The notes under the pieces were generated by a model, which saw nothing but the letters and a program-made list of their open reading frames with translations, was not told where the DNA came from and ran no database searches. A program made the translations under genes and the position numbers. 64,000 bases of DNA, from positions 4,630,747 to 4,694,746 of the forward strand of contig CAJINV010000001.1 in assembly GCA_905178155.1 (NCBI GenBank), written 5' to 3'. This document shows, one piece after another, positions 388 through 60,145 of the stretch; the first letter of the stretch is position 1, and every line of letters begins with the position of its first letter. The stretch comes from Amoebophrya sp. A120 (lineage: Eukaryota > Protista > Dinoflagellata).

Positions 388-3300
388 ATGAGTCTGGACG
401 CCGAAGCGGGGCGAGACTTGATGCAGATGCATGCTTTTTTGCACACCAAGGTGAACCGGACTCCCTCCGCAGCGGGTGGCGCAGCGCAAACAAGCGCGCC
501 GAATCCCGACCCGCGGGAGTTCGTTCCCCGCGCGAAACCGGACTTACGGGACTCCCACCCCAGCGGGTACTGGAGAGCCTTGCGAGCGCTTTTTTCGGCG
601 GAGACGACACTCATCCAAAATGAATGGCAGAACAAGTGGACGGAGGTGCATACGCAGCAACCGGATGAACAAGCAGCCCGAGCGGCGTATCGGCGACACT
701 TCGCAGCGGAAGTGGGGGACACCGCTCACGAAACAGACCTTTTCGACGAGCATCGATCGCAGGCCACGCTGGACAAACGGACGGAGCAGGACTGGACACC
801 GCAGCAGAAAACGAGGCAGGCCCAGGCCATCTTCCTCCTTTCGCACGTGGCGGACCACATCGACACAGTTTACGAGCATCGCGCAGGTGCGGCAAGAGCA
901 GATGTGTCCATAACATACCCAGGAGGGGAGTCAAACGTTAGCGACTTGTCGGACAGTCGCGACTTCGAAGTGGAGGCCACATGCGGGAGAAGCTCCGATG
1001 CAAACAATTCCAAGGTCTTTCACGAGAACAACAATTATTGTGTGAGGATGAAAGTGTATCACTCAGAAAAAAAGAAACCTGTAGCACAGCATGCGACGGC
1101 GTAGACTTTTCGAGATAGTACGTGAATAACGTCTGTCTCGCTTTGTTGCATGTCGGTGACATAAGTGGGGTGGCGGCGGCCCGTAACAGAATTTTGTATC
1201 GATTGCGTCATCACAGAGCCTTTATCAATCATGGCAAACAAGGTATTTTTTCTGTGTCATAAAAGTGTATTTCAGAAATGGGACAAAGACCAGCGTGACG
1301 TCGAGAAGAAGGGGCAGACGTTCGTACAAAAGGGAAAGATTCCGAGACAGCGTTTCGACGGTATCCAGACTACCTACTTCGGAGGCAGTTCCCAAAGAAC
1401 CTGGTACCTACTGGGTCCGGGTGACTATGTCGTGGGCTTAGACCCCAGAAGCAACGGACAATCGGAATACGAAGCGGAGTATCAAAATGAAAAATCCCCC
1501 CTCCCCCATATCAAAAGGGAAATCTATGATGGGATTTGTGTACACAAATCGGATCTGTCTTGCAGTAGAGCACTGCGCGCAGACCCTAAGGCTGGGCCGG
1601 GGTCTTCTGGTGTAGGCCCTTAGCATGGCAGATGTCTGCCCTGTAGGCCTTACAGCATTACAAATCGCCTGTAGAGCGCGGCGGACTCTCTGGATTTGCA
1701 TGGTTGCAAGACAGACAGGATTTGGCCACGAATCTGTGTCGGAAATCTCGAGACGGATGCGTTCGCAATGTGGGGAGGGGGGATTTTTTCCCGCAATACG
1801 GAGCACAACATGGCTCCCCAGTCTGCGTGGCGCGAGTCGTCGACGCCTTCCCACGCCGCCCATGACGATCCGGCCGGAGGGGAAAACAACACGCGCCATC
1901 AACTAGAGCGTGTGGGACAGTGGTACGATCGTCGCGCTGCGAGCGCACACGACCGGTGGCTATACGACGACGGACAGCGACGAAAGAGAGCCTTGGAGGA
2001 GGACATGAAAGAGAAGCTGAGCGCTCGCATCCGTCAATCTATCGCAAGGAAAACTTCCCGTGTGCCCGTGCTGTTCCTACCCCGTTCTTGCGTGCTGACC
2101 CACCTGGCGTAAATGCCCCTTGAAGGAGCTGGTCGGTCAGAATTGAAATTCGCAATGCGCGAAGTCGTTCGACTATATGCATGGCCGCTCCGCTGCTGTT
2201 GCATGAAGCACACCTTTTTGCAGACGCCCAAGCTAGTCTATCCAGTCACATCTTTCTTGAGGGTTGCGTGTGCGTTTTGACTGGTTTTAGGAGCGGCGCA
2301 GATTTGCAGCTTTGCATGAAGGGCTTCAGTCACGCATGAAAATGGACGGCCCGGGCTCGCCTTTGCTTTTCCGCGTGACAAAGGCAGAACGTACTCTCAT
2401 TCGGCACGCCACGCCGGCTCGTCTGGACGGCTTCGTGACGTCCGCGTACAGTGAAAGTGAGCGGACGCGTTTTGCTACCCGGAAGCTGTGGGCGGGGAAA
2501 CTGAAAACTTCGGCGAAGCTGACGCTGCGACAGCGGTGGCTCTGGTACGGCGGTGCCAAGTTTCATGAGTCCATGACGGGGGCCGTGATGCCGCACGACA
2601 GCTTTTTCGGGACGAGCACACCGTGGATGGATTGGCAAGGCAACTGGAATGGAAGATGGCTCGACTACCAGTTCCATGCTGTGGTGCGCGAAACCGGCGC
2701 CGAGGACGATGCAAGCTTCCGGCAGGGGAGCGGCCAAACCGATCCGTGGAACCTCGAAAATTTTCCTATCCTCTGCAAAGAAATATTGCGCAGACGCGCT
2801 TCATTGATCATCTGCTCCGTCCAGTGGTTCGTTGTGAAGTATGTATGTGAAAATCATGTCGTACGTACGTACTGGCGACCCTTGTTCAGGGAAAATCTTC
2901 CGAACCGCCTCAGGGGTCGTGCACTTTCGAAACAGTTAAAACAGACACCCACTGTACTTGCTTGTACGGTACTTACAACATAATTACCGTGTCCCCCTGA
3001 TGGAGAGGGCCAGCGCGATAGATCTTTGCAGTTGATATCTTTTGCGCTACTTCACCTGTACGCCTGGGACGCAGGAGCCCGGATCTACAAGGCGACGCCG
3101 AAACCAAACCGTGAGGCGGTGTGGTCTGAAGCCCCAGCTGAAGCCAAGAATACGTCCGGCGAGTACAGCTACCGCTACAGACCCGTAGATAATGCTGGAG
3201 GTTTTGATTCGCAAGAGCTGGATGCGGAAGGTCAGAATCACCGTGCGGCCTACGGCGCTGCGCTACAACAGCACATAACGGGGGTGCCCTGGGCCCTTGA

Positions 3301-6300
3301 AAACGGTTATTTCGCCCGCGGCTCCCGAAGAAGGCAACAACACACGACCAGAGATGTCAACAACCAGCTCGAGAGTACGAGTAGGGAGGAGTACGAGGAC
3401 GAATGGCAAATTCCGCGACGGCCGGTGCCGGGTACCGGACCTCGGTACCCGGCGCCATTTCGACCTCAGGTGGTTATTACAGGGAAAAATGCACCCACCC
3501 CAAAAGTTGCAATACTTGAGAGTGCGAAGTTTCCAAATGAAAACTTTGTGTCATGCATGAAAGGACTATGAATCTTTCTGATGCAGAGTCTGGTCGTATA
3601 CAGCATCGCCTGCATGACAATCGCCGCGCTTGCTGGGGTATTCTGCAATAACAAATTTTTGCTATTCACGACTGCAAATCTGATATATGCAAGAGGGCGA
3701 GTGTTTCCATTGAAAATGAAAAGGTTTGTAATTACAAATGCTCCCAAGTTCTGTCTGGGGTGAGGGCATTTTTCCTGACAATAGTGGTGGTGCAGAGTTT
3801 AGGGGAGGGCACAGTTTCCACCTCTCCCGTCTTCCGCCACTTCCTGCTGAACTCGTACGTGGGCTCCACGACGATCTCGGCTGCCACGCCCGCGGACGGC
3901 GCGGCGGCTACGGAACTCGAGTTGCGCAAAAGACTGCACGAGCTGCTGGTGCGCGGGCTTTACTACACGTCGCACCGAGCCACCATAGCCGTGTCCTCGG
4001 TTTCGGGACGGCGCAGCGCAGGTGCCGTACTCCTTCCTGGGGGTGGTGCCGGGGCGGATGTGGAGCAGAAGCTGCTGGCGGACGGGTATCGACGAGTGAG
4101 CACCACGGGGGTTAATCCCCCCAGCGAGTGGGAGCGCAGCGCAACGGAAATGCGGCAGCAGCGGTGGTGGACCCTGCGGAGCATCCTGGCCGCGCCGCTG
4201 GTGGTCGAGAAAGACCAGCAGAGCGAGTACCGACTGCAGGTGCGGCACGAGCTCCAGCTGTCGCTGCTGCTGCACGGGTTCGAGCGGACCCCGCAGTTTC
4301 TGCAGGAGCAGGGGCCTCTGCTACTGTTCTACATGGTGGCGCTCTCCGACCCTTGGGGCTTCCTCGATCAGGCGGGGCTGGACCGGGAGCGGTTCGCGCG
4401 GTTCTTCCGCACGCAGGTGCTCGACCACTTGAAGGCCAGCAAGCCGCTCGCAACGTTGATGGAGGCCGTGACGCAAGGCGCCTCGCACCGGGCCGCGAGA
4501 CTGGAGTCTGCGCGCGCCGCGGGCCACGGAGACGTGCTACGCCTCCGGGTGTTCTACCGGCTGTTGTTCAAGCTGTGCCAGTTCCTACGGGCGTTCTTCC
4601 CCGATCTGGAGGCGCCGGACGCAGCAGCCCCCTCGCTATCAAATGCAACTAGGTCGGAGTCTGGATCATCAGTGCACATGCTTGTGGTCGTGCTGTTTTT
4701 CCGTGACTCAGAAGGCATGCAGGCTCTAGCATCACTTACAGGTAGTTTTGAGACGGCATGACAAGTGCGCTGCTGCACTTCCGCTCAGCATGGGCATGAA
4801 GAAATACAACTTTTGTGGAGTAGTAAATTCAAGGACGGAACATATCAACATCCGGCAGCACGTTGCGATGTTTTCGCAGCTCTGCCCCTAGAAAATCTCC
4901 TGCGTCCGAAGCTCCTTGCGGCAACGGAGCAAAGTTCTTTATTCGATTTGGTGCAGTCCGGTCGTATGCATGAAAAAAATCCCCTGTCTCGGTAGCAAGA
5001 CATGGGTACAACTATTAACTTTTGCTGTCCTCTATGTGGGAGAGATTTATTTCTTGGTGTAGGTTGAAATATGCGCATGATCCAGACCTAGACGTGTTTA
5101 CAGTGGATACAACCCCCCGGCGGGCGGTGACGACGTGCAGGGGCTGCGGGTGCTGCTGGAAGGGTATCTGCTGGAGCTGCACCAGCTCGTGGTGGGTGAC
5201 CTGGCCGCGGCCGATCGCGCGCGACGGGCTCCTGCTGCCGACCGTGCAGAGGCGGGCGAAGCGGACGGGGAGCAGGACCGCGCCTGGAACCAACTCAGAG
5301 AGGAGGCGATCTACCACGTGCACCGCGTGAGTCAGGATGCGCTGGTTGTGGAGGCCCTTTTCTTCGGATCCGCCCGGGAAGCGTCCTACGTGTATCACGC
5401 CCGGTGCCGCGGGGGCCTTGGTACCGATAGCGAAGACGGCACCATCAACACGTCACCATCACCCCGGACGAACCTGTGTCTGTCTAACGCCATTTTTCTG
5501 AACTGCCTCTCGCGCCGATATTACCTCGAGTCTGAGCACGCGGGACGGCTAGTGATCGATCAGATGGAGATATCCAAGAAAAAAAGATTGTAGGTGTAAC
5601 TTTTTTGGCTGATCAGCATTATGGCAGGACAGCAGAAACCTGTCATGCGCAGATAGCATGTCAAAACGCGCTTGAATGGACCACCCTGCAATGCATATGT
5701 CCAGCATGACAGACGCAATCATCTTACGTGTTGCGCATCACGACAAACTTACACTAACAATGTTTTTTTCCTGCATAGGAGAAGCACGATCTCGCCCGGG
5801 CGCGGTTGTGGATTCGCCAGGCCGACTACGCCGAGCAGCGGGCTGTGGCTGGCAACCCCCGGAGCTTCGCGAGTGCAAGTACCAGGCATGGAGTCGCGTG
5901 GTGTGTCGTGGATGTGTTCTGGCCACCGGATGCCGGTCGTGAGGAGACGCCTGAGACTCGCCTGGGAGCTTGGGGCACGTGGGGACAGGAAGATTTGTTC
6001 GTGAAAGTTACGGATGGAGGCGTAGAAAAGGCGATCAACCCCATGACGGGGGCCGCGATGCTGGTGGAGGGGCAAGCGCAGTTCGAAAACTTCCCAAAGA
6101 TCCCGCGCGGCTGGGCCCGAAGCCCCTTGTTTCAGCGCCTGTTCTCTCAGCCGTCAGACTTTGTGCAGTGCCTGGTACGGGAGGTGAGCGTTTACGGGCA
6201 GCGGTACTTCCAGATTCGCAATTCTCGGGTACGAGACTTACTCTTTCGCCCGGAGTCCACAGCAGGCGGGGACGGACTGCCCGAGAATTCCAGTCCGCGG

Positions 6301-9300
6301 GTGTACTGGCGAAGGCCGGGCACCTCTGAGCTGTTCGAGTTGTCCCGTGCGGAAGAAGTGGAGGACCTAGCGCGGGAGGTCGAGCGGAGCGCACCCCAGC
6401 TGGGCAAAACGCGGACGGTGTGGACGATATCAAATGCAAAAATGTCTGGGTCTGGAAGATTGCTAGATTTGTGATGCAGGTCTTCCATGACCCACGCGGT
6501 CTTGCATGCACGGCCTAGCGCGACAGGTTCTGTGAGATCTCTATTATGCCTTTGTTCCTGCGTGAGAGACTGTCTCTAAAAAACTTGTTTAAAAGTGGAC
6601 CTCTTTTGGTAATCATGCAACACTTTAGAGCTTGACCCAATCTCCCCGAGATCAAGCCCGTAGGCTTTGTTCGTAAAGGGGGTGACTTTGGTTTTAGAGC
6701 AATCTTCCACTCGTGATAGACAAAGGCTAGTGCATTAAAGGTTGAGGGGTCGAATGAATCACGCAACAGAAATTTTTCCACGATCCAGATGTAGCATGAC
6801 AAGCTACACTCTTCCTGACCCAGACATTTCTTCAATGTATAGACGACACTGCGGGACAAGTTTGACTTTTGGGTGAAGCAGAACCCGGACGAACGGGGGA
6901 CAGCCGCCGCGTTAGCGCCGGCGGTCTTACTGGCTGTGAAGCGGGAGAGAGCACGGGGGGAACCAGAGCCGCTCATCCCCTATCCTGAGTAAAAACGTCC
7001 CCACACCAGAGATGTAATGCAGATTTGCAAAGACAGGAAGACTCGTAATACGCATCCCCATGAGAGCCATTTCCAATCGTGTTTTGGAATTTGTGATGCT
7101 CTGAACAGGATGAGCAGATGAATCTGTGATGCGGCTGCACTTGCTAACCTGCACTACACTGCAGAGTGCAACTTGTCATGCGTGACTCACAAAACTCCTA
7201 GGTTTGTGTTGCAAAATCCCCATCCTGACTCTGGTGTGGCTACGTTTTTACTCAGGATATCCCCTCGGGCGTAGTCAGTCACCCGCAGGCGATGTTCACA
7301 CTCACGGAGGCGGGGTACCTGACGCCCCACCGCAGTGACTCCACGGGCTTGCCGAAAGACTACGCAAACCTGTTTGGCACAGTGCAGGCGTATCAACATG
7401 CAGCTCAAGAACGCGGCGTGGGCGGCGAGGGCCGGACGATCTCGTGGCGCCTGCTGGCGCAGGGAAATATCGTTGGCGGGGATTTGGACCAACAAGCCTT
7501 AGTGCGGCAGTTGCTTCGCAGCGGTGGCAGGGATGTGACCGGCCTAGACCTGAACCCACAGTATGTCCGCGACATGGTCGGACGGGTGCGAGAGGGCAAG
7601 GGAATCACGCAGATGGGCATTTCTATGAAGTGCAAGTATGTTGTCTGGGTCCTCCGGAAGACCGCAGGACGAGTTTCCCATGCTATTGTTCCATGACCCG
7701 ATGAAAGGTCTAGCATGCAAGCCCTGATATTTTACAGGGTTGCAGAAGTAGGTGTCTCAAACTCAATGACTAAGCCGCATGTTGACAAGGTTCGTCTACT
7801 TCCGGCGTGTCAGTAAAGTGGGCATCAACTTTTGCTGTCCATGCATGACAGATTTTTGTGCGGTTTCATGTGCGCACGACGAGTTTGCACGCTTCCAGAC
7901 CCAGATCGATATTTGCAATGCATAATTTCGGTGGAGGCGCAACTGAGTTGGGAGGCGCATGAAGTACCAGTACGCGAGGACGGGTCCGCCGAGAGGCTGA
8001 TCGCGAACGCAGTGCAATTTCCGTTGCTGGCTGCGGGGCGCGGGGACTCCGCCACCTGGTTGACGTTTGTGCGGCCGGGGGAACTCAGCCCGTGGCACCG
8101 CTATTGGCACGCAGCCGAGGACCCGACGTACGTCCTCGCGCGAAGGGCCGTCGTTCCCGGATGGCCGAGCTTGCGCCACGCGATTGCCTTGCGCGAACGC
8201 CCCGCACGGCCGGAGGATGATGTTGACGATTATTACAACCACGTAGTACAAGGAGCAGGAGCAGCTGCACAAGCGCATCGCAACATGGACGAGGTCCAGC
8301 GGACGGAGAACACGTGGACGCAGCTGCGTTCGTTGCGGCTTCTGGTCCTGCGCACCGCACTGCCGCTGCAGCAAGCCCGGAATATCGACCTGATTCGGGA
8401 CTACGCCGTCACGGTCCCGGAGCTTCGTGGCATCCAGGCTGCAGGAGCGCCACTGCCGCAATACGTTGTGATCGATGCGAAAACGCAGGATCAACAACCT
8501 TACGAGGAATTCATAATCCAAGCAGAAGGCGAGGGCGACACACAACTACAGGAACAAGCTCCGCAGGAGCCAGGTGCTGGCGCGGCAGTTCAAGTCGAAG
8601 AGCCAGGTCAGTGCCCGATATGTCTGGACGACATTGATATGAACAGCCAAGAGTACGTTTACTGCGCGGGAGGTCGAAGACTTAACCACTATTTCCACAA
8701 GGCATGCAGCGGGGATCACGCCAGGGAAAACTCAGAGGCGCGGTGCCCATTGTGCAGAGAAGCAGGGGGGTTTAGGATTGCCAATGCTGGTCCAAACATG
8801 GGCAGCCGGTACCCGCCAGCCAGGAATGCGGCGGCGGGAGCTCCTGCGGCGGCGGGAGCTGCACAGGAGGTGGATTTCTTTTCTGTAGTACCGCGGCGCG
8901 AAGACGCAAGCTGGAGAGGCCCGTCCGAGGAGGTACAGGTTGCCCGACCCGACGTCGAGCGTGCAGAGTTGAATGCGCCTTTCCTCGGCGACGCGGAGGC
9001 GCAGACGCAGGCGGAGCTGTACCTCGCCTACCTGTCGTATGGAAGTGCCATGCGGGGAATCCTCGAATTCGATCTATATTGGAACAATTTGAATGCAGAT
9101 GCACCCCCCGCCATTTCTACAACCAGGCTCATGCGAGTCGTTATGGTGGTGGCCCGAGAATGATGGCCGTGGCACTTCTCGGTTGCCCGTGTCGTACTCA
9201 TTCTCCGTGCGCGACGCCCTTCATCTACGCCCTATGGCCAGTAGGAAGGCAAAGGACGCCGCGTGTTTGTAGTTTAGTGTGAGTCCTCTCTGTCTCCACC

Positions 9301-12300
9301 ATTCTCGGCCAGTGGTCCCCGTAGCCACACCATTTCCGGCTTCGTCTCATGTTTTTCGCGCGCGAGGCCGGGTGAGGCTAGTCCTAGTACAACTTTTTGT
9401 ATTGTTTGCGAGTGAAAACTGAAAGGTATATTCTCATTAAATCTTACATTGAGGATTTTCCCACCTGGTGCTTCCATACCTCCCTTGTGCTCCCGGAGGC
9501 TCGTCCCACGCAGGCGATGGAGATGCTGCGACACATGGTGAACCCGTTGACCACCTACTCGGCTGAGTCCAAAGGCATTTTGCGGAACATGGTGCGGTCG
9601 AAGGCCGCGGCCGCGGCAACGAAACAAGACCGGTCGCACCCGGACGCGCTGCGGGCCCGCTTGGTGGCGCTGGCGCGGCTGCTGCGCAACGAGCTCCGCC
9701 ACAGCGCCAACGGAGCAGGGGAGGCGCCTGCGGAAGCTGCCGAAATGGCCAAGGAAATCGCGGGCGAGATTGAGCAGCTGGTTCGCGGCGGAGTAGCGCT
9801 GCGGTCGCTGCGGCTGAATACTCGCGCTCAGACGAATTTCTTGGGTGAACACGACGAAGCAGCTGTCCTCGATTGGGTTTTAAACCACTGCGGCGAGGCG
9901 GCAACCGCGGATGTAATTTATCGCGATTACAAGAACTCTAAATTTTCAACCCCGCGTGGCTTGGAAAGTCGTGCGCTTGGTGATCAATTTTTGCGCACGT
10001 CAGATTCAGACCAAACTCTGCATGCGGGCTGCTCGTGTAAATACTTCCCTGTTCTTCGCAGCCGCATGCCGTGGGAACACTGTATATGAGTACTTATGTA
10101 TTTATTTGTTGATATATCAGGTCCTGTTCTTGCCGGCTCGCCTGTTGACAAGGGTCGTCCAAGATGCTTGCGCGAAATTTTTTTCATGTTCATTGATGAT
10201 AGGCATTCCGGGGAGGTTTTCGTTATTTAGGCAGAGAGGTCTGGCGCAGACGACCACGCGCAGGAACGTTGGCACAGTAGCAAAACAGCCACTATAAATG
10301 AAATCACAGTTGTTGTATTACTAGGTCGAGTTGCATTTGTTCCATAGCGTGCCCCAGGCCGCGGGGGGGTATATTGATTTTTTCATCGTGATAGTCCACG
10401 CAAAGCGATCGAAGCCTTCGCGAAAGCCGAGGCAAGTACCGCAGTACAGCCAAACCTGCTCGTCAAGCTCGGAACGCTGGAGCGAATGGATGACACAGTG
10501 CCGGCTGCGTGGCGCATTGCAAACTACGCGAACAGTGGTGGGGCCGCAACAGCCGGGTTTCTGTTGATGCCCCCGGGGCAACGAGATAACTTGTCGCAAC
10601 ACAGGAGCGGGGAGCAAGAACTACAGGAGTTCATGTCTCAGTACGTTTACAGCGAGCAAGGGCTTTCCGACCGCGACAAGAGAAACCGGCGCGAAGCCTT
10701 GGCCGGCGGAGTTTTGCAGCGGCGGAATCTGAGAGATCATTGTGCAGAGATCAATCGGCTCCATAATTCGGGGACTCGTCACCGGCCTGGTGATAAGGCT
10801 CTCCTTCGCCTGCGTGGCTTTTACGGCTGGGTCAAGGGCGTAGATAGTGCTGAAGCAACAGAGGTCCGAGTCCGCCTGGAAAGAAAGCTTGTCTGGATGC
10901 TTGGTTCGGAATCTCTGGATTTGCAGCAGTGGCGGCCACCACGACCCGACCATGAAACCGAATTTGCGAGAGAACGTCGGAGGCACTTACTGCTGACGTG
11001 TTCTTCCACTTATTTTCTGATGCGAGCATTGCTGTGGACGCGTGCCAGAAGAGTCCCCCTTCCCGACCCGCCTCAGTTTCCGTGGGAAAGAAATCAAAAC
11101 GCACCTGGCCAAGGCAACAGAGCGAGGCAAGCGCACCAGGCGGAGGCAAGCGCACCTGGCGACGGCAATTGGGTAGACATTGATTCGCTAAACCTTCGGA
11201 CGGAGCTCGACACAAACGTTTTCTTGGACAGTGGAAACGGTTCTCGGCATTACCACGTCGTGAACACCCAAAACAGGTCGGAGAGGCTGGTGGTCAGACG
11301 AGCGACGGCCGGGGTAACGGCGACGGAGGACGATCCTCAGTACCGTAGTTTGCGGGAGGAGCAGCACAGGAAGGAGCGGGAGCTTGCACACACAGAAGCC
11401 AGTCTTCCGGGTGCGCGTGCACAGTTACGAGCGAGCGTGCAAGCGACGCAAAACTTGCGGGACCAAATAAATGATCGGTGGACATTTCGTACGCTTCCCC
11501 AAGGGGAGCGAGACAGAGTATGGGGTCTTTATTTTGACGCACAGAACCGAGAGACCCGGCCGCGCGATCAGGTACAAACTCTCGAGGGACAGCAAAGAGA
11601 TCTCACGAGGCAGATCGAAGGACTGAAAACGAATCGCAAGAACCACTGGATGCGAGTTCGCTCGCAGTGGATTAAAATGGAGTGGAAAGCTCGTGCGTTG
11701 GAGCCCTGGCTCATGCAAGTGCAGAATGACGTGATTGCCCCTTTTCAGCAACACTTGGACGATATTCGTTTCACCGGAGCAGCAGCAGACGTCGCGACGA
11801 CGTCGAATTTAGACCAGTTCCCTCCGCGACGCGCTGATCGATTAGCGTCGGTTTTCGGCGGACCGACACGCGCCCAGGTCCGGGCACTGCGCCCCGGACA
11901 GCGGCCCGCCCGGCTGACTTTGCCCGAACCTGCCAGGTCCCAGACTGCTTTGGAATGGCTGCGCGGCCGCCGAGAACCAGACGCCTCCGTGCGACTCGTA
12001 GCGGACGACGAGCCTCTTGGGAAAGCCCGCGCTGTGGTGCGAGAGCTAGGTCGAGGCAAGTTGTTCTTTCGGGACCTTCTCGACGCCGTTTCACCCGAGG
12101 CGAACCAGCAGCAAGCGGGCCCGATTCTCGAGGAGCTGCTACACCGCTACGAAAGAGACCGGGACACGGCCCGCGTTTTGGAGCGCGCAGCGCTGGAGAG
12201 CGTCCTGTTTCTCACCCCGACCGGCACGACCGGCGACGCAGAGGAGGCGGTGCTGACCTACCTGCACCGGTCCCGCAGCGTGTGGCGCATGCATGACCTG

Positions 12301-32475: not shown

Positions 32476-32574
32476 TAGTCGCGTGTCTTATGTGGTTTGT
32501 TGCTGTGTACGAAAAGGTTTGAGTGAAATTTTAACAAAGGCTAAGAAATTAAAAGCAGTGCAATTCAGCACGAG

Positions 32575-47747: not shown

Positions 47748-48929
47748 GGAAAGACCCGACTTCTTGGGTCCAAACTTCAGCAGGCTTACGCAGCAACTTT
47801 TGATTATTGCGACTACTTACTCTTACACGACTTCTTCTTCATCCAGCAAGCGACAAGTAAATTTTCCTCGAATCTTCGGAAGCTGCGAGAACATCTCTCG
47901 ACGAACGCTTTTGCACCCCTTGTGCCCCGCAGATGAAGTTTTTTTACGTTCCTAGAACAGAAAGTAGTAAACCAGTAGATTGATTATACCTTTTGTTCGC
48001 ATAAGAATATCCTTCAACGGCGACTTTTCGTTTTCCCACCTGAACCGAAATACCAAGTATGCAAGTATGAATTTTCTTGGAATTATCAAATTTTATATGA
48101 TACTTTGATATCATTGGAATATCATCAATTTTGACGACAATTTGGGCGAACTTTACTTTGACGGTCCTGGTTTCTCAGACCGAGCGCGAAAAATGCAGTA
48201 CAGTAAAAGGTAGACTGTTTATTTAGATGAGCAGTAAAATAGATTCTCGACCACCTAGAACTTACCCTATCCGTGTCCAGAGCAAAATATTTCCGGAACT
48301 TCCTACTTTGTTTGGAGCTAGCACAGTTTTTCAGCGGCGTGCTGGTTTCACCCTATCTACGAGAACTCGAGAACTCTTTTCTCATCTTTTTAGCGAACTT
48401 TCTTTTCCGCGCGCGACCCGAAATATCTTTTCGTCTCCTTTGATCGATGAAGACGGTACTCAGACTCGGACCCCTCCACTGATCCGAACCGCGTGCGAAG
48501 ACTTTTACCGGAGAAGCGAGTAACCAGAAGGCCGCGCTACGTGGTACAGCCGATAAGTTTTTGTCAGTGGACGCTTCGAGGATGTTCCTCTTCCACCCGC
48601 ACATGATATGGTTGCAAAGAGCGCCCCGGATCAAAGCGAACTGAAATTCTTGAAAAGCGATCTTTCTGTCGTTTGCTTGAAAGGTATTTTTGTCGTCTCG
48701 GCAGTATCGTACTTCTACTTACTTGTAGATAGTTCGTTGTGCCTCAGCTTCTGGTCGTGTCCTCATCAGTTTTGCAGCAATCTTCTGGTCTGTACTAGCG
48801 GTATTTAACAAACATTGAAAGAACAATGTGAAATACGCTTGCCCCCGATTCTTGCGATTTTTTTCTTATTTCTAAACTTTTGTATTCGTCTCACCAACAC
48901 CCCATACGAAAAACACACGTTTCAAAAAC

Positions 48930-51036
48930 ATGGTTCGACTCCAGCCCGGGAACAAGCCCGGCGCTGCGGCGTCGGGCGGTGGGGCGCGCGAGAAGGAGCA
49001 GAAAAACAGCGACCTCACCGGGAATACTATGCGAATACAGACGGCGCGCGGCAAGGTTTATCTTTTCGGAGTCCGCCTGTTTCAGAACGACTGGACCGGC
49101 ACGGTGATAACCGGGTTGATTCTCGGTATATTCGTGGCCAAGTGCTGCGGCTACTTCGGATGGTCCGCGCCGGGGTCGGACGAGGCGTATTACACCTTGG
49201 CGTGTCTGTTTCTTATCTACGGCATGCTGCTGGCTGCGGATCTGCAAAAGAGCATCGGCGTGGACGTGGTACTCCTCGCTTGCCTTTCGGTCGCGTTTCT
49301 GATAAAACACTCGGATTCCATCCTGCACCCGAGTAGTAACTTTGAGGTCAACTGGGTCCGTCCGGTGGCGTTCACGGTGTTTGGAATACCAATACAGAGC
49401 TTCGGGATCTGCATGGCCGCGGCGTTTCTGGTGTGCCACGAACTCGCAGAACGGGAGTTCTCAGTGAATAAGGTATAGAATTATATTTTTCCGGATGTGC
49501 GACACCGGATGAAATTTTGATTGTTCCTTGTTCCCTACGTCATCATTGATTTCACAAACATATCACCCATTTCAGATAGAATGTGCCGCGGGTCCGCTTT
49601 TGGTTGCAGCGACGGTCGGGGGCCTTTTCGGTGCAAAGGTGCACTACGTAATCTTGAATGCCCACATAGACGACGCCGCGTTTTTTGCCCCAGGCTTGGT
49701 GTGGCAAGGCGGAGCACTCATGGGGGCTGCCTGCGTTATTGCGTACGTGAAGGTACTAGCGAATTTTGTCAACTGCGGGTTCTTCATCTGCTTGACGCAT
49801 AATCTATCAATTGTGCATGACTAGTATTACATCAAAAAAAACCGGCACAAAGTCTCGTCCACAGAACCATGAAAATTCTCATCGACAGTCCTTCTCCACT
49901 GAGATCGTTCACCGCGTATTAGACGTGTCCGCGCCCTTGCTCCCGCTCGGGCACGCGATCGGAAAAATCGGCTGCTTTGTCTCGGGCGACGGTTGCTACG
50001 GCCCCCACAGCAGCTACTACTTCGCGATGAGCTTCCCGCACGGTCGGCTGCCGACGAAAAGGCCGGTGCACCCGACTCCCATCTACGAAATGATCCTTTC
50101 CGGGCTGGTTTTCCACTACCTGTGGACGCGACGGCACGTCGCGCTGTGGTTCAAGGGGGACTATCAAATGTAAAAGTGTCTGGGTCTGGAAGACTCATGC
50201 TGTTTTTGCATGACACAGAAGGTCTGGCATGGAAGCTCTAGCATCACACGTCTCGAGAAGCTTCCGCAATGCCGAATCCGCATGACAAATGCCGCACTCT
50301 GGTGACAGAAAGTGGGCAACTTTTGCTAACTATGCATGAGAGATTTTTATGTGTTGTGAAATGCGCATCACAAGTTTGTCTTCTTCCAGACCCAGACATT
50401 TTTGCAATTCATAGGGACCAAACGACGCTGATGTTCCTCCTGACCAGCGTCACGAGGTTTATCACGGAAATTATTACAATGAAAAATGCCCCCACCCCAG
50501 AACTTGGCAGCATTTGTATTGCGAACCTTTCCAATGGAAACACTCCCCGTCTTGCACATATCAGCATCACAAATCCTCCATGCTGAATAGCTCAGATTTG
50601 TGTTGCAAAGGAGCACAACAGCAGCCGCATCTGTTATGCAAAAGATACCTTGCGCACCTAAATTCTGCATCAGCAATGAATGCTCGTAGTCCTTTCATGC
50701 AAGACGAAAATCTTTCATTTGGAAACTTTGCATGAGAAACTTTTGCCGGGGGCATTTTTCATTGTAATAGAAATTTGGCGAGACCACAACCACGACGGCC
50801 AGGCCGAGCCGCTGTGGCCCTGGAATCAGCAGCAGATGATCTGCGCCTGGGTCTTCGTCTTGTCCTGCGTCACCCGACTACTCATCCGATGGCAGGCATT
50901 TGTAGAAACGAGCAAGGCCAACGCGCCATTAGTGCCTGGAGAGAACAAAGGGGAAGAAGGGGGAAAGAACGCAAATGAGAGCAACGCCAGACAAACCGTA
51001 AACACGGGTGGCACCACATCGAAAAAGAAAAGATAA
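48930..51036 (+). CDS. lgt: Prolipoprotein diacylglyceryl transferase (Lgt)-like protein
   Basis: PVAFTVFGIPIQSFG, GGLFGAKVHYVI, GLVWQGGALMG, LDVSAPLLPLGHAIGKIGCFVSGDGCYG, VHPTPIYE, RFITEIWRD. Two probable GT-AG introns and two TIR elements. Confidence 0.85.
50162..50413. mobile_element. TIR intron element, family A (252 bp)
   Basis: TATCAAATGTAAAAGTGTCTGGGTCTGGAAGA...TCTTCCAGACCCAGACATTTTTGCAATTCATA; DR GGGAC; spliced FKGD/QTTLMF. Confidence 0.93.
50472..50769. mobile_element. TIR intron element, family C, reverse orientation (298 bp)
   Basis: TATTACAATGAAAAATGCCCC...GGGGCATTTTTCATTGTAATA; DR GAAAT; spliced RFITE/IWRD. Confidence 0.93.
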
Positions 51037-51824
51037 CGACTTTATTATAGGTCGAACTGACATAAGAATGAACACCAATGTTGAGAAAGAGAAGAAGAAG
51101 CATTTCTTTGCGGCTTCCAAGAAGCCCCATGCGCTTTCCACATCGCAACGTCGACATTTGCAAAAACTCGACAAGAGTTTGTGATGGACGAGGTGATGTT
51201 GCATCTTTCAGTTTCAGAGAGCATATCTTCTCGCCGTTACAGAAGCTGCTCAAAAAAGGATTGGCTCCAAGACGATCTATCTATAATTCACTACTACCCG
51301 TCGAACTTCGAAGATCTCTCGGCCGTGCAGCAGCGCTCTCGGATGATCCTACTTGAACATCGCTCAAATCACTTTTGATCCACGATTTCGTGTCGTACCC
51401 ACATTATACGGTGAGATCAACGACGAGGGTTTTATGCTGATAAAAATGCGCGATCAAGAACAAATGCGGATCAGATTTTACCTTTATTTCACCTGTTCAG
51501 AAAAGTTCTGCTTGAAGACGAAAGTTCGTTCCATCGGTCGTCTCTCCGAGGGTCAGTCAATTGTTTTCATACGGCTCTGTATTTTGCTCTTACATTCAAC
51601 ACAGACCACATAAGTACTAGCGACACTTTTCTCTTAGACCTGTACTCTCCATTTTTAGCTTCACCCGATTTTCAAACCCACACCTCGTATACTATCACTT
51701 TACGACGCGTCTCTCTTTTCGTCACAGATTTTTGTCCCCAAAGTACTAACCTATACGACTTCCTTATTCAGCCATTCGCTTGACTAGCTTTTTGATCCGC
51801 CGTCGTCCTGCAGTACGTCGTAGC

Positions 51825-54274
51825 ATGAGCAACGCGCTGCGTCTGAACGTGGATTACCTGCGTCAAATTGGACTAGCTGTCGCCATGCCGGAGAACGGAG
51901 TGAGCAACGGAACCGCGGCCGCCGCCGCGCCGGTCAACAAACCCGCAACGGGGTCGGGTGAAGCGGGCGCCAAGAAAAAGGGAAAGAAAAACGAGAAAAA
52001 ACAAATGATCGACCTCGCACCCCCGCATGGCACAAGAGACTTTTTCCCCGAAGAAATGAGAGCAGAACAATGGTATTGACGTAATATTGAATGAACATAA
52101 AAATACTTGTAGTACTGACTTTAGTCGAACAACGCACTGCAGCTGACGCAAGTCATCGTCTGCTTGATCAGATGCAGAAGTTAGTTTTGCTTTGCTGGTT
52201 TTGGTGAAAGGATGTGATCGTCAATATGTATAACCACATTTCCCAGGTTGTTCGACAAGTTTTCTGGCACCGCGAGACGGTTTGGTTTTGAGAAATACGA
52301 CGCACCGGTCCTGGAGAACGTTGCACTGTACGAAAGAAAAGCCGGGGAGGAGATCACGGAGCAGATGTACAATTTCATCGACAAGGACGGCGCGAGCGTG
52401 ACCCTGCGACCCGAGATGACGCCCAGTTTGGCCCGGATGGTGCTCAACCTGATGCGCGAGGAGACGGGCCAGATGGCCACCATGCTGCCGCTCAAGTGGT
52501 ACAGCATCCCCCAGTGCTGGCGCTTTGAAACCACGCAGAGGGGCAGGAAAAGAGAACACTACCAGTGGAACATGGACGTATAAGACTTCTGCATTTTATG
52601 CTAACATAGTAGTTGTCATGGCTAGAACATCAAGAGTCCTCGTAGAGACAACTTTGTCCAAAGGTACTAAATGCTTAATACACACTTCGGTTATTTAATC
52701 CTAACAGCCGTAATCTGGGTCATCAGAATGAATCGAAACGCCTTTGAGTTTTTGAATCCCTTCACTGAACAATAAACAGATGATCGGCGTGGACAATATT
52801 ACCTCTGAAGCCGAGCTGCTCGCGTCCGTGGTGGATTTCTTTGAGTCTGTTGGTCTCACCGCCGCCGACATCAAGATCAAGGTGAACAGCCGGAAGGTTT
52901 TGGGTTTCGTCCTGGCCAAGGCCGGCGTGTCGGACGAGCAGTTCGCCGCGGCCACGGTGATTATCGACAAGCAGGACAAAATTGGCGCGGAGGAGTGCAA
53001 GAAGCAGCTGAACGAACAGCTGAATCTTCCCATGGACACATGTAACAAGATCGTGGACGCAACGGCCGCGGAGACCCTGCAGAAGTTCGCGGAAGTCGCC
53101 GAGGCAACGGACAGTGAGGAAGTACAAGAACTGCAGCAGCTCTTCGATCTCGCGAAGGACTACGGCTACGGGGACTGGTATAGTGTCTTAAGGATGATGC
53201 GGCAAAATAGCAGCAGAGTTGCATGTTTAAAACTTTGTCAACATTCTATAGTTTTTTGAACATTGAACTTGAAGAAAGACAAGTGAGCCGTCGTGAGAAA
53301 CGAAAATTGACGTTGCTGATGAAAAGTATAATTTTAGATTGTTCCATCGAATCACCCCTACAACAGGCTGGTATTCGACGCTTCTGTTGTCCGGGGTCTG
53401 GCGTATTACACGGGTATCGTTTTCGAAGCCAACGACCGCAAGGGGGAGTTCCGCGCAATCTGCGGCGGCGGCAGGTACGACAAGCTGCTTTCCCTGTACG
53501 GGGCGAGTAAGCCGATCTCCATGTGCGGTTTCGGCTTTGGGGACTGCGTGATCATGGAGCTTTTGAAGGAGAAAAAGCTGCTGCCGGAATTTAAGCAGAA
53601 CGCCGACTACTTGGTAGGGTTTTTTGGGTTGGTCATGCCCCTTACGCATTTTGTGTAGTTCAGGCTCAGGAGCTTCATTTTTTGCATGCGGGAGGAACGA
53701 TTTGCGATGACACTGCAGGGAAATAAGCGAAAGCAAGATTTATTGCGAGTCAAAGTTCCGAAGTGGTGATGAAATCCACGCATCTAGTACTAAAATTTTT
53801 CGTTTTATCACTACCAATGGCAAACTCCCCCCCGGTGGCCGGGCACTGCTAAAACGGGCGGTGAAACGTCACTGGGGGTGCAGAAGTGGTCTAACCACTT
53901 CTGCAGAAGCATTTACCTTCTGAGAATTGCACTACAGTATGTGGGAGGCTTTTACCGCTCACCTTAAGAAGCGCACACGTCATTCATTTTATCACTACAA
54001 ACAGGTCTGCGCCTTCAACAAGGACATGCTAGGTCCCGCGATGAAGGTGGCCCGTGAGCTGCGAAAAACCGACAAAACCGTGGTGTTCTACCAGCAGGTC
54101 GCGAAAAAGATCGCGAATGCGTTCAACTACGCCGACCGCATTGGGGCGCGGTACGTCGCGCTTGTGGCTCCGGACGAGTACCAAAACGGCTTGGTCAGGA
54201 TTAAGGACCTGCGCGAGGAGGACGTGGACAAAAAGCAGAAGGACGTACCCATCGAAGAGTTGAAAAACTTGTGA
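51825..54274 (+). CDS. HARS: Histidyl-tRNA synthetase
   Basis: [67 protein letters not shown]-terminal anticodon-binding domain. Only GT-AG-type introns seen. Confidence 0.96.
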
Positions 54275-55560
54275 TGGACATTTGTACTTCTATCCTCTGA
54301 AAATAATAGTACAGTGTCCCCCGAAACAAGTACATACTGAATTTGAAGCTGCATTTATTGCGGTTTTTCTCTTTCCTTTCGCGCGTCGTGTTTGCTGCTT
54401 CGAAGTATTTCACCTGAGCGAATTCGCTTGCCATGGCGAAGCGAAACGCTCACTGTGATCGATTTTCAACGCAAAAAAAAGAAACGCAAAGACCGTAAAA
54501 AAAAGAACGAAATTCAAGTCGCTGCCTGACCCCGTAGTGGTCGGCTGCTCGTTCGAACGCGCAGAGAATGCTTGGAATGCTGTTCCCGAAAAACGAAAAA
54601 GTTTTATAAACGGAGCTCCGCTGTTGAGAACGTCAATCAGTCACAGATGCGTTCCGTTTGTGCAGCGTGCGCGCAGCGTGGATCAAACAATTGTTTCTGT
54701 GGTGGCCAAATCTACAAGCAGCGGCGCGCCTCCGTTCCCTTTTTGCGTGTGGCTTTGGACACCGTGGTGATCGTTTGGAGGCGGCACACGAAAGAAAAAG
54801 AAAAATGAAATTCTTTATTAAGTCTTGGCAGGCGCAGGAATTTCTATTTCACGATTACCATGATGATGTTACACGGTTTTACGAACAGAAACAGCACGTA
54901 AACGAAATATAAATACTGATATTTGTCACTCTTGTACGATACGAATTACACAATTTACTAGGAAGGTGTAATGGCACATACTCGATCTGCCGCCGTTGCC
55001 CTTCAGCTAGAGCAGTGTCCTTGAAGATCTGCGTGGCGCGGACAATTTCAAGCGAAATTCATAGAATCTTCTAACAAAAGGACGTACGCGGTCGACATAG
55101 TCTATTCCCTTCAAAACGCCTACTCGCTCATCATTTTTAATACGCTACTGTTATGTTTTAGTTTTTGTTTGTCATTTCTTTCATCGAACAGGCCGAATCG
55201 AACGAAGTAGATGTCTAATCCTTCAGGAGCATTTTTTGTATCGAGATTAGAACTCTTTGCCGTAATATGATGTTCTTGTAGGAACCACTGTCGCTGTGCT
55301 GGTGAACTACGCGCTAATGTCTGACACCCTAGCGCTAGAAGAATGGGGACTCGTCAGCACTCGTCGAAAATCCCACCGAAAAATACAACCTATTCCGGAT
55401 TTGTTTAGTGAAAGATTTTGCAGCTGCTCTACTTCGGGAGAGTCAGCGGGGACAAGCCGGCCAGGAGCCCTAATTTGTAAAAGTAGACCTGGGCCTAGAT
55501 AGAACAGCCACTGTGCACGACCGGCATTTGTCGTTCTTCTCCTAGGCCGTGCCGCAGATC

Positions 55561-58500
55561 ATGTATTCCTCCTTCTCATACCCAGGGTCGAAGAGCGCGT
55601 CCAAGGGCGGGAGTAGTACTTACGGGAAGACCGGCAAAGGCGGGGCGGCGGCAAGTAGCTACCAGCAGGCTTACCACCTCGCCAGCGCGCAGCAGCAGCA
55701 CAGCGGGTCCACGGCCTGGGCCGCCGGTGGGTATAATTATCACCAGCCGGCGCACATCAGCGGTTCCTACCTCGGTGCTGCTGGGCCAACGTCTTCGTAC
55801 ATTCCGGATAGTGGGTCGAGTGGGACGAGCGTGGGCTCGTGGCAGGCGCAGAGCCACGCAGAACTGCTGGCGGAGCTGCAAATTCAGCAGTACAATCACG
55901 CGGCGGCCGAGCAATACGGAGTAGAGCAACAGGCTGGTGAGCACTCGTTGTACAGCGCGTCGCCGGAACTCCTGCAACACCAGGCGGAACAGGCAGTGGC
56001 CGCGGCCGGTGCGGTGGGGTACCCAGATTACTCCTCCTACCTGTACAACTCAACAGGAGCTGCTGCAGCGGAACAGCAACAGCACGCCGCGTACTACCAG
56101 CAACTTTCGTCCACGGTGTCGGTCCCGCCGGGCTTCGAACCGGAAGATTCGCAACCGATTTGGGCGGATCACGGGGGAGTAGAGCTGGGAGTAACAGACA
56201 CCAGCACTTCTGCGCGGACTAGCGAAAATATTAAAGGGGAGACCACTTCTGCAGCACTACAAGGTTCTGCTGCAAGCAGGATTTCGCTTATTTCCGTTGG
56301 GACTTCTTCTGCGGGATCGTCCTCCTCCTCGTCAGCAAGCGCGAGCGGGAGCGCAGCCACTTCCTCCGGCAGCTTCAGCAAAGTTACGGACCCTTCGCAA
56401 ATCAAGGAGTTCCATCCCACGTTGAGCCACAGCCCTGCGGGGGATTTGGTGCCGAGCTTAACGGCGGCGTTAGAAGCGTCGCCGGCGGGACCTTGTTCCG
56501 ACTACAAGTATATGGAAGAGGAGTACAGTGCGGGATATCTTCCACCTCCCGAATCATCTTCAACCTCCGCTGAGTCCGTCGCTTCCGCGGCTGCGGCAGC
56601 GTACCACCTGAAGCAGGCAGCGCTGTACGGTAGCTTTCTGCGTGCTGCATCTTCCCAGCACCAGGCCGCGCAACTTGCGGCTGCGGAGCACCTCGACCCG
56701 GCTACGTTTTACGCCACCGGCTTTGCTCCACCGCCGAGCGGGTCCTTGGTCCCATCGCCGGGGCTTTTCGCGGGTGGAGCTGCAGCAGCGAACGCTGCCG
56801 CACTAGCGGCCGGGCTGAAAAACAGCGGCAAGACCACGAGCGCATCCAAAGCCTCTTCTTCGGGAAAGCACCACAAAGGCGGAAAGCAGGGCGGATTCGG
56901 AGGAGGTGCAGCAGCTTTTTCTTCGCACGGCGGCAAGAACGGACACAACATGAAGGGTCCGGCGGGCGGGGCGCATAATGCCTCGAGCAAGCACGACCAA
57001 CATCTTGGGAAGCAGGGGGCCTACGGAAAGACCTCCTTCTCCCCTTCCGCGTCCTCTTCGAACAGCAGCTCGGCCTCGCCGGCGCCAAATAAACCCCAGC
57101 CGCCCAGCAGCACGGCCGTCGCGAATGCGAACTTTGTGCCCCCGATCGGCCAGGGTGGCGTGTTGGCCACGGGTAACACCGGGTCCACGAAGGGAGCGGG
57201 CGGCAAGCACGGGAAAAAGTGGCCCCGCTACCTTCCGGAGTACCCCACGGAGGACTTTTGGAAGTACAGCAGCTTCGGCGACGTGTCAGTATGATAGTGC
57301 ACAACTCCCCCTCCCCCTCATTTGTAATGCAAAATTCCCAACTCACGCTCACGCTCATCCTGTGCCTCCTGGCACGTTTTGCATGACAAGTTCTGGAAGC
57401 CCAAATAGCACTACACTCCTCCGCAAAGTTGTCATGCAAAACCTGCATTCTTGCTGGCACTTGTATTGCCGTTCATGCTATACAAATGAGGGGGAGGGGA
57501 TGTTGTGCACTGTCATAGTCAGAGAGGATTCACTACTTAGGAATCGCCTACAGCTACCTGAACTACTTCAGTGCGCGCACGGAAGAGATCATGGACCGCC
57601 AACGTCAGCGCTCGCGTTTGCTCAAGATGATTCAGTATACGCCACCAACGTCAACAGTCGATGCGCGGGCTCCTTCGTCCACTGGAACTTCTGCAAGCGT
57701 CAAGAGCGACGGCAATGCCAGTTGTGGGGCCAACAAAATAAATTCAATTCCACCGGCGGAGCTCGAGGAGGGCTCCCTCTTTGGCGCTTCCGTGGACGCG
57801 GACGCCATGAAAAAGCGTTTTGACGACCTGACGAACCGCGAGAGGGGCGCTGTGGCTGCGAATTGGTGCGTGATTCGGACCATGCTCGAACTGCAGGAAG
57901 ACCTGGACAGTGCCAGGTTCATCACCTCCGGAGTACCAAACTCGTTCAAGGTCGACCAAGACAACGACGGCCGGGTACTACTTCTATCGGAACTTTGGAG
58001 TTTCATTTTTGCAAATTTGCGCAGGATTTTGATTGCATAAGTTTGCGCGGATTTTTCGTCTGCTCAATATGTTTAGCCGATATCTTTTGAGGATGTGCGG
58101 AAGCGATTCTACATGTACGAAATTTTTGGGACGAAAATAATGAACGCAATACAGACTGGAGCGACCCTGAAGCAGTTGGTCAGGGACTGGTCAGAAGAAG
58201 GCAAAGAAGATACCTAATTGAAAACATTCGACCAAGACAGTGAAATGTGCGCCTAGCAGCTTTACTGCGGAAGTAAAGTTCAATAGGCTGCGGCCAGTTG
58301 CATTTCGTTGTGCTTTGTAAGTATACCGTATGTTTTTGTATCACCATCTTTTTTTATCTATGACTCTCTCGCAGCGGTACAACGTGTTTTGTATTGAGGT
58401 TGAGTGTTTTCATGGTGATTTCTGAGCGCGACCTGGCCTACAAACCGTTGCTTGACGCACTGGAGAAATATTTACCGCTTACCGAAGAGATGAAGAGCGG

Positions 58501-60145
58501 GGTGGCGGATCCACGCGACCACTACCGCGTCAGCGTTCCTGGATGCGGGCTCGCCAGGCTTTTGTTTGAGGTAGCAAATAATTTTCTGTTCTCATCATGT
58601 TGAATGTCATGCAGCATGCAGTATCATGTCGCACATTTTTGAGAATTATACCACTCAGCCGCTCTCTGCTGATCATTATCAAGAATCACAATGAATCGCT
58701 GCAGGTTGTGAACCGAGGGTATTGTGGTGAGGGAAACGAGTTTTCTTGGCACATGATGATGATGGGCGACTTCATCCTAAATTGCTGCGACGAACCGAAT
58801 ATGTACACCATATACCCATGGGCGACGTCATACAAGGAAAAGATCACGGACGAGTAAATAAATATAACATAGAGTAGTTTTTTTTCGATTAAGGTCGCAC
58901 GCAGTGTACTCACGGAGCTCCCTCCTATCCGTGTATAATTATCTGGTCGTCATGTATTGTAGGTATAGTAGCGCCATAGATCATAGAAGTGGAAGTGCAT
59001 GTAGCAGTGTCTAAAGGGCCTCTTTAAATCCATTGCCATACGTTCTTTTACCAGGGGTCGGCTGAAAGGCATCCGGATTCCGGATGTGTCAGTGCTCCGG
59101 GAACTGACCAACCCGAAGCGCACCCTACCCGTGGTCGGCTTCGGGATGGCGTCCGGGGACTTCACTGAGATTTACGGGCGCGAGTCGCAGGTGGGACAGT
59201 GGGACGCGGTCCTGACCTGCTACTTCGTGGACACCGCGCGCAACATCTTTCTCTACATTCGCACCATCGCGAAGATGCTGCGGTCCGGCGGCGTGTGGGC
59301 GAACCTGGGGCCGCTGTTGTGGCACTTCGCGGAGACGCCGTATCAAATGTAAAAGTGTCTGGCTCTGGAAGAATGCAACTTGTCATGCTGATTTTGGATT
59401 CTAAAAAAATCTGTATTGCATGAGCAGCAAAGAGAGTCCAAGTTTTGCTACACGGAAAGAGCATTTGTCATGCGGTATAGGCATCAGGAAGCCCTCACAA
59501 AATCTGTGACGCTAGGGCATGCATCACAGACATCAGGAGTCATGCGAAATGTGCATGACAAACCTGGCAATCTTCCAGACCCAGACATTTTTGCATTTGA
59601 TATGCCGGAGCAGCACTCGATCGAGGTGTCGTACCACGAACTTATGCTCGCGGTCCGCATATCTTAATGAAAAATCCCCCCTCGCCATACTAAAACGGAG
59701 ATTTGTGTAGCGTGATTTGTGACCACAAATCATGTTGTCATGCTAGAAGGCAAAAGATGCGGACTGTAGTGCTGGCTGGCGTGGGAAAGCCTTTCATCTT
59801 CAGCATGCCAGGAGGCAACTGGAAGTGGGAAACAGCATGACAAACTTCCTGCAGTCCAGGCCAAGACTGCGCTTCTTGGCCTTCTAGCAATACAAGGCTA
59901 TAATTTGTGTACGCCAATCCAGCATCACAGATGTCTCTTTCGATATGGGGAGGGGTGATTTTTCCTCGCAATGCCGCAAGTACTTCGTGATTCGGGAGGA
60001 TCGCGACGTCCCCGTGGGACCGGGCTACAACTTCGACGACAACAGCACGCGCAACAACCGGTTTCGCCCAAAGCTCTTCGTGGGCATACGCAACAAGAAA
60101 CCGGTCAAGGGGGAGAGCAACCCGGTGTACAACGAGGAAATGTAG
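55561..60145 (+). CDS. CARNMT1: Carnosine N-methyltransferase (N2227-like) with long low-complexity N-terminus
   Basis: LKQLVRDWSEEG, VPGCGLARLLFE, GNEFSWHMM, GDFTEIYG, WDAVLTCYFVDTARNI, WANLGPLLWHF, SIEVSY. Three TIR elements plus other introns whose exact ends (~57975-59054) I did not all resolve. Confidence 0.88.
57290..57517. mobile_element. TIR intron element, singleton (228 bp)
   Basis: TATGATAGTGCACAACTCCCCCTCCCCCTCATTTGTA...TACAAATGAGGGGGAGGGGATGTTGTGCACTGTCATA; DR GTCAG; spliced GDVS/ERIHYLG. Confidence 0.93.
59341..59602. mobile_element. TIR intron element, family A, reverse orientation (262 bp)
   Basis: TATCAAATGTAAAAGTGTCTGG...CCAGACATTTTTGCATTTGATA; DR CGCCG/TGCCG; interior resembles the reverse complement of the 44313 copy. 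Confidence 0.93.
59660..59973. mobile_element. TIR intron element, family B, reverse orientation (314 bp), ends ATG
   Basis: TATCTTAATGAAAAATCCCCC...GGGGTGATTTTTCCTCGCAATG; DR CCGCA; spliced LAVR/KYFVIRE. Confidence 0.9.

Follow-up and report, generated by a model that had tools for sequence, protein, structure and literature searches.

The repeats considered here break up coding regions in a 64,000-nucleotide (nt) stretch of the dinoflagellate Amoebophrya sp. A120 (contig CAJINV010000001.1; the whole stretch is hereafter called the window), and their closest described relatives are the introners of the same organism. These have been reported as resembling miniature inverted-repeat transposable elements (MITEs), with many families, inverted repeats of TAT followed by seven less conserved nt and three As, direct repeats, and no dinucleotide signature (PMC7789003); the direct repeats are given as 3-5 nt in the text of that paper and as 5 bp in the legend of its Fig. 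S19. The same source reports U2, U4, U5 and U6 along with 83 of 89 spliceosomal proteins in A120, and no cognate transposase was found there. A further A120 family, flanked by terminal inverted repeats and with integrase-like homology, has been described (PMC12130899). As for other algae, classes 2, 3, 6, 7, 8 and 10 of the introner-like elements of Polarella glacialis are spliceosomal introns in either orientation (bioRxiv 10.1101/2020.10.14.339549), and Aureococcus introners are cited in the same work as occurring in both orientations.

The window elements have TAT...ATA ends and a 5-bp duplication, they lie in coding exons in both orientations, they are removed without a scar, and no GT or AG is carried by them or recruited from the target. 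Judged from their sequence they are the MITE-like introners already published for A120 (PMC7789003), a link that the first-pass annotation of the window did not make. That their removal from transcripts is scarless and independent of orientation we regard as nearly certain.

Elements of the window and their orientation

Three exons of the window are 100% identical to annotated Amoebophrya sp. A120 proteins, and A120 was the best or only match in three of three protein searches. The host genes had been placed on the + strand, and this was confirmed by Pfam matches on + strand exons (CARME, PNTB, LGT, NOL10, Carb_anhydrase and HisRS; 8 of 14 queries matched) along with canonical GT..AG introns on + in the same spliced contigs as the element joints.

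By self-comparison and end scans we detected 23 elements of 119-475 nt that break up + strand coding regions, 19 of them clear and 4 decayed or diverged. They start with TAT (TAC at 40704 and 58211) and finish with ATA (ATG at 59660, ATT at 58211), an A-tract at element positions 11-14 is usual, and 5-bp direct repeats flank them. Families A, B and C were found where the first-pass annotation had put them; missing from its list were two family A copies, at 6428 and at 40704, along with nine further elements of the same build. The elements are as follows.

1480-1798, + strand, forward: family B introner; duplication CGGAG/CGGAG; removing the element plus 5 nt leaves one open frame
3475-3783, + strand, forward: family C introner; duplication GTGGT
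4637-5109, orientation uncalled: decayed TAT...ATA element; decayed duplication CTCGC/CAACC; removing the element plus 5 nt restores an open frame
5571-5777, orientation uncalled: introner of another family; duplication GGAGA; annotated protein P0024 reads across
6428-6841, + strand, forward: family A introner that exceeds its mates by about 150 nt; duplication GACGA; P0024 reads exactly across
6981-7259, orientation uncalled: introner of another family; duplication TCCCC; P0024 reads across
7624-7924, orientation uncalled: diverged A-like introner; duplication ATTTC; P0024 reads across
9919-10393, orientation uncalled: decayed TAT...ATA element; duplication lost (TAATT/GTCCA)
13322-13471, orientation uncalled: introner of a 150-nt family; duplication GGGCC
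22767-23033, + strand, forward: family A introner at the 3' end of a very long coding region; duplication AACCA
26397-26719, + strand, forward: family B introner in a NOL10-like gene; duplication GGAGA
31666-31928, + strand, forward: family A introner; duplication GAGGA
34696-35017, - strand, reversed: family B introner; duplication GAAGC; annotated protein P0023 reads over the exact excision
37518-37636, orientation uncalled: 119-nt introner in a carbonic anhydrase gene; duplication TACAA
38330-38635, + strand, forward: family C introner in a carbonic anhydrase gene; duplication CGCGA
40704-40955, + strand, forward: family A introner with 5' end TAC; duplication CACGC
44313-44576, + strand, forward: family A introner inside a PNTB domain; duplication CAAGC/CAAGT, mismatched at base 5
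50162-50413, + strand, forward: family A introner in an Lgt-like gene; duplication GGGAC; 257 nt (252 + 5) skipped
50472-50769, - strand, reversed: family C introner in an Lgt-like gene; duplication GAAAT; 303 nt (298 + 5) skipped
57290-57517, orientation uncalled: introner of another family without an A-tract at 11-14; duplication GTCAG; 233 nt (228 + 5) skipped
58211-58420, orientation uncalled: decayed introner, TAC...ATT, with a 15-bp end-to-end stem kept; duplication GAAGA/TCTGA; 215 nt skipped
59341-59602, - strand, reversed: family A introner inside a carnosine N-methyltransferase domain; duplication CGCCG/TGCCG, mismatched at base 1; 267 nt (262 + 5) skipped
59660-59973, orientation uncalled: member of a sister family of B with the same inverted ends, another core and 3' ATG; duplication CCGCA; 319 nt (314 + 5) skipped

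The published A120 introner traits are present: an inverted repeat of TAT, seven variable nt and at least three As (57290, with no A-tract, is the exception), a 3-5 nt direct repeat at the borders, repetition, non-GT-AG ends and absence from transcripts. So are those of MITEs, namely short length, terminal inverted repeats, a target duplication of constant length and many copies; the depth of the DNA run X5 was 1e4-2e5 in element bins and about 45 elsewhere. With detection that did not require a repeat, an exact 5-bp duplication was found in 161 of 193 copies. The end detector returned 320 elements, 18 in the window and 302 in loci of a second assembly, against none in block-shuffled sequence. 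A stem-only detector for decayed copies was dropped due to register errors and 91 null against 470 real matches. By profile the element families match one another weakly.

To determine orientation, 80 nt were cut off each element end so that the inverted repeats could not decide. The trimmed cores of 34696 (B), 50472 (C) and 59341 (A) matched their close mates in reverse with z 8-20, against at most 3.7 on the same strand. For 34696 the reversed and same-strand z were 14.2 and 2.3 against 1480, and 12.1 and 2.3 against 26397; for 50472 they were 8.2 and 1.7 against 3475, and 12.2 and 2.2 against 38330. The core of 59341 gave 17.8 and 1.6 against 44313, all six of its family A comparisons were reversed, and it has 84.5% identity over 265 nt to the reverse complement of 44313. 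The two alignments that the first-pass annotation had proposed as a check, 34696 with 1480 and 59341 with 44313, thus both match as reverse complements and not on the same strand, and three of its four reversed calls stand.

The fourth call, 59660 as a reversed family B copy, has no orientation support and was ruled out. For its core z did not exceed 5.0 on either strand and the individual calls disagreed, the element tied against the family B profile (129.1 against 128.0 bits), and it clusters in a separate sister family of five members in which the four sisters align forward; with B-like ends on a different core the reversed call is therefore unsupported, and from the alignments the element would be forward if anything. 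Its sequence has a mosaic look across 59660-59973, with the outer 10 nt close to forward B, the next 60-70 nt close to reversed B and the core that of the sister family, and arm exchange may possibly lie behind this.

Further, the same families are present in another assembly, in 139 loci (405 kb) retrieved by a pattern scan, with elements up to 96% identical to those of the window and no common exons among the longest matches. The loci were picked for a perfect family A end, which favours young copies and not an orientation. Host strand was called for 172 of the 320 elements by a coding model trained on window exons, and seven of eight families were present both ways round (A 52:42, p 0.35; 11:6; 12:7; 8:9; B 7:4; 2:1; C 3:1; 0:2). 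In a stricter set of 100 elements, with a 180-nt open frame over the excision, family A stood at 28:24; the strands agreed with the earlier call in 70 cases, 30 had been uncalled before, and there were no contradictions.

Removal from transcripts and the cut register

Joints were read on 49950-60250 in assembled contigs of runs X1-X4, which are one sample of one study and whose RNA nature is assumed. Thirteen joints are listed there, each in all four runs, and of these seven are GT..AG and six non-canonical. All six non-canonical joints skip an element plus 5 nt (50162, 50472, 57290, 58211, 59341 and 59660), and they do so in both orientations, as seen for the forward 50162 (A) and the reversed 50472 (C) and 59341 (A). 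None of these six elements has GT-AG ends of the canonical U2 type. The mapping label "between: not known" is carried by 10 of the 13 joints. For the last gene, however, the protein obtained with its seven joints agrees with the annotated P0001 (a carnosine N-methyltransferase) at all 1011 residues, and its homologues can be aligned over the 59341 site, either gap-free or with an unrelated insert.

Annotated proteins read across 34696 (P0023) and across 5571, 6428, 6981 and 7624 (P0024, a partial protein that does not extend over 4637); it should be noted that the A120 protein annotation is not independent of RNA-seq. The 44313 element splits the PNTB profile into positions 4-142 upstream and 142-388 downstream of it, and here an X4 contig begins at 44577 with the downstream base 5, showing the downstream side only. 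The raw RNA runs X8 and X9 had 6 and 3 mapped reads, so the evidence for removal is from contigs, which give no levels. The claim that the elements act as introns is hence borne out in contigs for 50162, 50472, 59341 and 59660, and by annotation for 34696.

We found no sign that splice sites are taken from the target. Among 120 coding copies GT-AG occurred in any of six registers in 5, where 6.4±2.3 were expected, and G[TCA]-AG in 13 against 14.6, and the duplication bases have the composition of the exon background. As availability is at chance level, recruitment of GT or AG from the target is ruled out.

Exact duplications mask the register of the cut and mismatched ones reveal it. The joint at 59341 keeps upstream base 1 in all four runs (register at least 1), and that at 58211 keeps upstream bases 1-3 (register at least 3). 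The latter skip, 58209-58423 with GA..CT, may sit at most 2 nt rightward, so that the cut follows base 3, 4 or 5 of the duplication; this decayed element is still removed base-exactly. At 44313 the downstream base 5 is kept (register at most 4, one side seen). Given one common rule, we infer a register of 3 or 4.

We favour register 4, a cut after duplication base 4 with the intron starting N-TAT, on four counts, each of them weak. The canonical donors are GTAY in 7 of 10 RNA-confirmed introns and resemble N|TAT, and T stands at +2 in all nine non-canonical site types that Table S4 of PMC7789003 gives as predominant in A120. At the 5' end none of 172 copies has a change in the first two element bases, against 5 of 172 at the 3' end; the 5' variants are TAC (3) and TAA (1). 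Last, of 100 coding insertions 56 have a duplication that starts at codon position 3, 27 at position 2 and 17 at position 1 (p 4.5e-6), and under register 4 a start at position 3 means phase 0. Duplication mismatches fell at bases 1 and 5 in 17 of 26 strand-called copies and in 28 of 53 copies overall (p 0.07), a result on which we do not rely. The decayed elements 58211, 4637 and 9919 with their diverged duplications can serve as natural markers of the cut position.

The removal signal and the explanations considered

Apart from the ends, nothing but a set of short, mirror-placed motifs is common to both orientations. The inverted repeat yields the same 5' motif TAT-N7-AAAA and 3' motif TTTT-N7-ATA either way round, which probably accounts for the orientation independence. 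The first-pass annotation had argued that spliceosomal introns are directional and that the symmetrical stem, or palindromic motifs, must therefore be the signal. Orientation independence is real and the symmetric ends carry the signal; the step to the stem fails, since a terminal inverted repeat presents the same directional motifs whichever way it is inserted, and the published two-orientation spliceosomal introners of Polarella and Aureococcus make end symmetry compatible with a spliceosome.

A stem of the euglenid type is found by folding prediction, with an end-to-end duplex of -23.9 to -62.9 kcal/mol in seven of seven elements against -4.0 to -11.1 in ten of ten canonical introns; predicted fold z was -7.8 for 59341 and -2.74 for the decayed 58211. 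Of 172 copies, 167-170 are paired at arm positions 1-3 and only 70-136 at positions 4-7, where positions 1-3, like 11-14, had been part of the detection criteria. As for the motifs, in 167 elements read in host sense TGT[GC]ATGC has its maximum in the second tenth of the element (85 matches) and its complement GCAT[GC]ACA in the ninth (79), and the density of CATG is 12.6 per kb in elements, 7.3 per kb in canonical introns and 2.8 per kb in exons. The palindromes CATG and TGCA and the motifs TGT[GC]ATGC/GCAT[GC]ACA are common to families with different ends and are weaker in canonical introns.

The explanation we prefer, to which we give even chances as a whole, is that symmetric inverted ends and an end-to-end stem are read by a relaxed major spliceosome. 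From their anatomy the elements would be mobilised in trans by a cut-and-paste transposase. The intron would begin N-TAT, which places T at +2 and makes +2 to +4 TAY like the GTAY donors of this genome, and the 3' cut would fall four bases past ATA at an unconstrained dinucleotide. The predicted hairpin would join the ends and replace recognition by U1 and of AG, and catalysis would be left to the U2/U5/U6 spliceosome.

Several observations weigh against this explanation. U1 was not detected in A120 (PMC7789003), whose authors also call the splice sites variable. Selection on the stem at the RNA level was not seen (G-U against A-C excess in 51 and 61 elements, p 0.40), the sense strand folds better in only 83 of 167 elements, and after 590 tests no k-mer retains a strand bias (best p 0.004). 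Ends are intact in 56 of 63 exonic and 22 of 24 apparently non-coding copies, where the non-coding class is small and contaminated and 263 of 350 are unclear. No branch-like motif was seen, TACTAAC having 2 matches in 167 elements, and 57290 is removed although it has no A/T-tract. The asymmetry between 5' and 3' ends is just 0 against 5 (p about 0.06), the register comes from three sites, one of them single-sided, and an assumed single rule, and where a duplication is exact, the aligner decides how Table S4 places the sites. Register 1 or a target preference would suit the phase bias too, and in a looser set this bias is uneven between contig strands. Finally, the four runs are one sample and RNA only by guess, and host strands in the second assembly are predictions of the window-trained model, not RNA.

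The alternative that survives best is removal independent of the spliceosome, in which a structure-guided nuclease and a ligase would act on the terminal stem with cuts at fixed distances, as proposed for euglenids; this amounts to the stem reading of the first-pass annotation, and we hold it plausible, if on the improbable side. The absence of a constrained dinucleotide at either end speaks for it, as do the strong predicted stem in all seven tested elements, kept even in 58211, the failure to find U1, and the Euglena introns with a paired-motif and spacer code and circles, for which distinct machinery has been suggested. A donor-like reading is suggested instead by the likeness of TAY to GTAY donors, by the T that Table S4 has at +2 and by the asymmetry, a weak one, in favour of the 5' end; pairing is not under visible selection on the RNA strand, arm positions 4-7 vary in their pairing while 1-3 are kept, and the same build of inverted and direct repeats occurs in 15% of A120 canonical introns (PMC7789003).

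It is improbable that the signal consists of the mirror-placed motifs (TGT[GC]ATGC, GCAT[GC]ACA, CATG/TGCA), bound by protein and marking the element for removal. Their subterminal peaks and the enrichment of CATG would suit such a role, but motifs alone cannot set a base-exact cut, and what the decayed 58211 retains are its ends and stem. Mirror-placed subterminal motifs also resemble transposase binding sites, which counts against a role in removal.

Loss at the DNA level, with contigs joined from empty DNA (empty alleles, another strain or somatic excision), is very improbable and was rejected: the runs are RNA by guess only, a joint of element plus one duplication is also how an empty site would appear, and the joints of the DNA run X5 were covered in part, but seven GT..AG introns are skipped in the same contigs, contigs of the DNA run X5 enter the elements at flank depth (59580-59725 at 44.8 against 41-46), and the 58211 joint takes in a portion of both decayed copies of the duplication, for which an empty site from before the insertion would have no need.

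More generally, we tentatively raise a splicing code without an invariant dinucleotide, rather unlikely as we judge it, in which any TAT...ATA hairpin would be cut one base before the 5' TAT and four after the 3' ATA by a U1-less spliceosome or a new enzyme tuned to the ends of the transposon itself. With a cut offset equal to the 5-bp stagger of the transposase, an exonic insertion anywhere and either way round would be removed without a scar. If this is true, insertion into an exon would carry almost no cost, intron gains in the tens of thousands would be accounted for, and the proto-splice-site explanation would fail in the face of a phase 0 excess to which no recruited splice sites contribute.

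Surroundings of the elements and comparison with known systems

The carnosine N-methyltransferase gene (55560-60146) encodes an N-terminal extension, about 560 aa long and of low complexity, that is absent from the aligned homologues. The NAD(P) transhydrogenase gene (43700-47750) has its beta part (PNTB) first, and one transcript continues from there into a putative alpha part. The coding region at 9517-23080 is very long, about 4,000 aa if joined, and a Pfam scan of its 979-aa and 1306-aa exons gave no match. Short tandem arrays lie between genes at 32575-32690 (period about 34 nt) and in frame inside the long gene at 19459-19748. A 651-nt intergenic palindrome at 36408-37058, 74% self-complementary and with ends unlike those of the TAT...ATA elements, is probably another MITE family. 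An Rfam scan of the window returned no match.

The system is not a new one, as the A120 repeats and two-orientation introners of other algae have been published. No statement of orientation-blind removal in Amoebophrya was found in the searched full texts, a scope that leaves out supplements of PMC12130899 and PMC9860276, bioRxiv supplements, figures and subscription papers; in the searched text of PMC7789003 "orientation" is used only of genes and "strand" does not occur. The present results add constraints on how a eukaryote without detected U1 disposes of introns that are mostly non-GT-AG: neither orientation nor target sequence matters to the removal, no scar is left, and the cut lies after base 3 or 4. 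Forward and reversed copies of one family form a natural control, with the same ends and the opposite core strand, and copies with mismatched duplications can map the cut from existing RNA-seq, hence the splicing question is testable with existing data.

Polarella and Aureococcus share with the window the derivation of introners from DNA transposons, the occurrence in either orientation and the scarless removal. They differ in that GT, GC or GA and AG are carried or recruited from the duplication, which is not the case here, and the phase bias explained in Polarella by splice-site recruitment occurs in Amoebophrya without it. The introns of Fritillaria borealis (PMC11282704, PMC13326754) are likewise MITE-derived and non-GT-AG, and are removed by an adapted spliceosome; their AG-AC and AG-AT consensus and fixed target motif have no counterpart here.

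The nonconventional introns of euglenids and hemistasiids (PMC12501133, PMC12621601, PMC11282704) resemble the window elements in lacking GT-AG, in their paired ends and junction direct repeats, in a motif a few bases inside each border with the longer spacer at the 3' side, and in a proposed MITE origin. The euglenid code has CAG/CTG with spacers of 3 and 5-6 nt and a purine exon start, whereas here we find TAT/ATA with inferred spacers of 1 and 4; the N3CDG and CHG-N5-6 pattern is absent, and the duplication has exon background composition in place of the purine start. Circular excision products have been shown in Euglena, a lineage unrelated to Amoebophrya.

The A120 introners themselves were published with unknown or variable borders (PMC7789003), while here the excised unit is the element plus 5 nt in both orientations and the register is narrowed to 3-4. 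Orientation-blindness, the fixed 5-bp geometry and the clue to the register are thus small additions to a published class.

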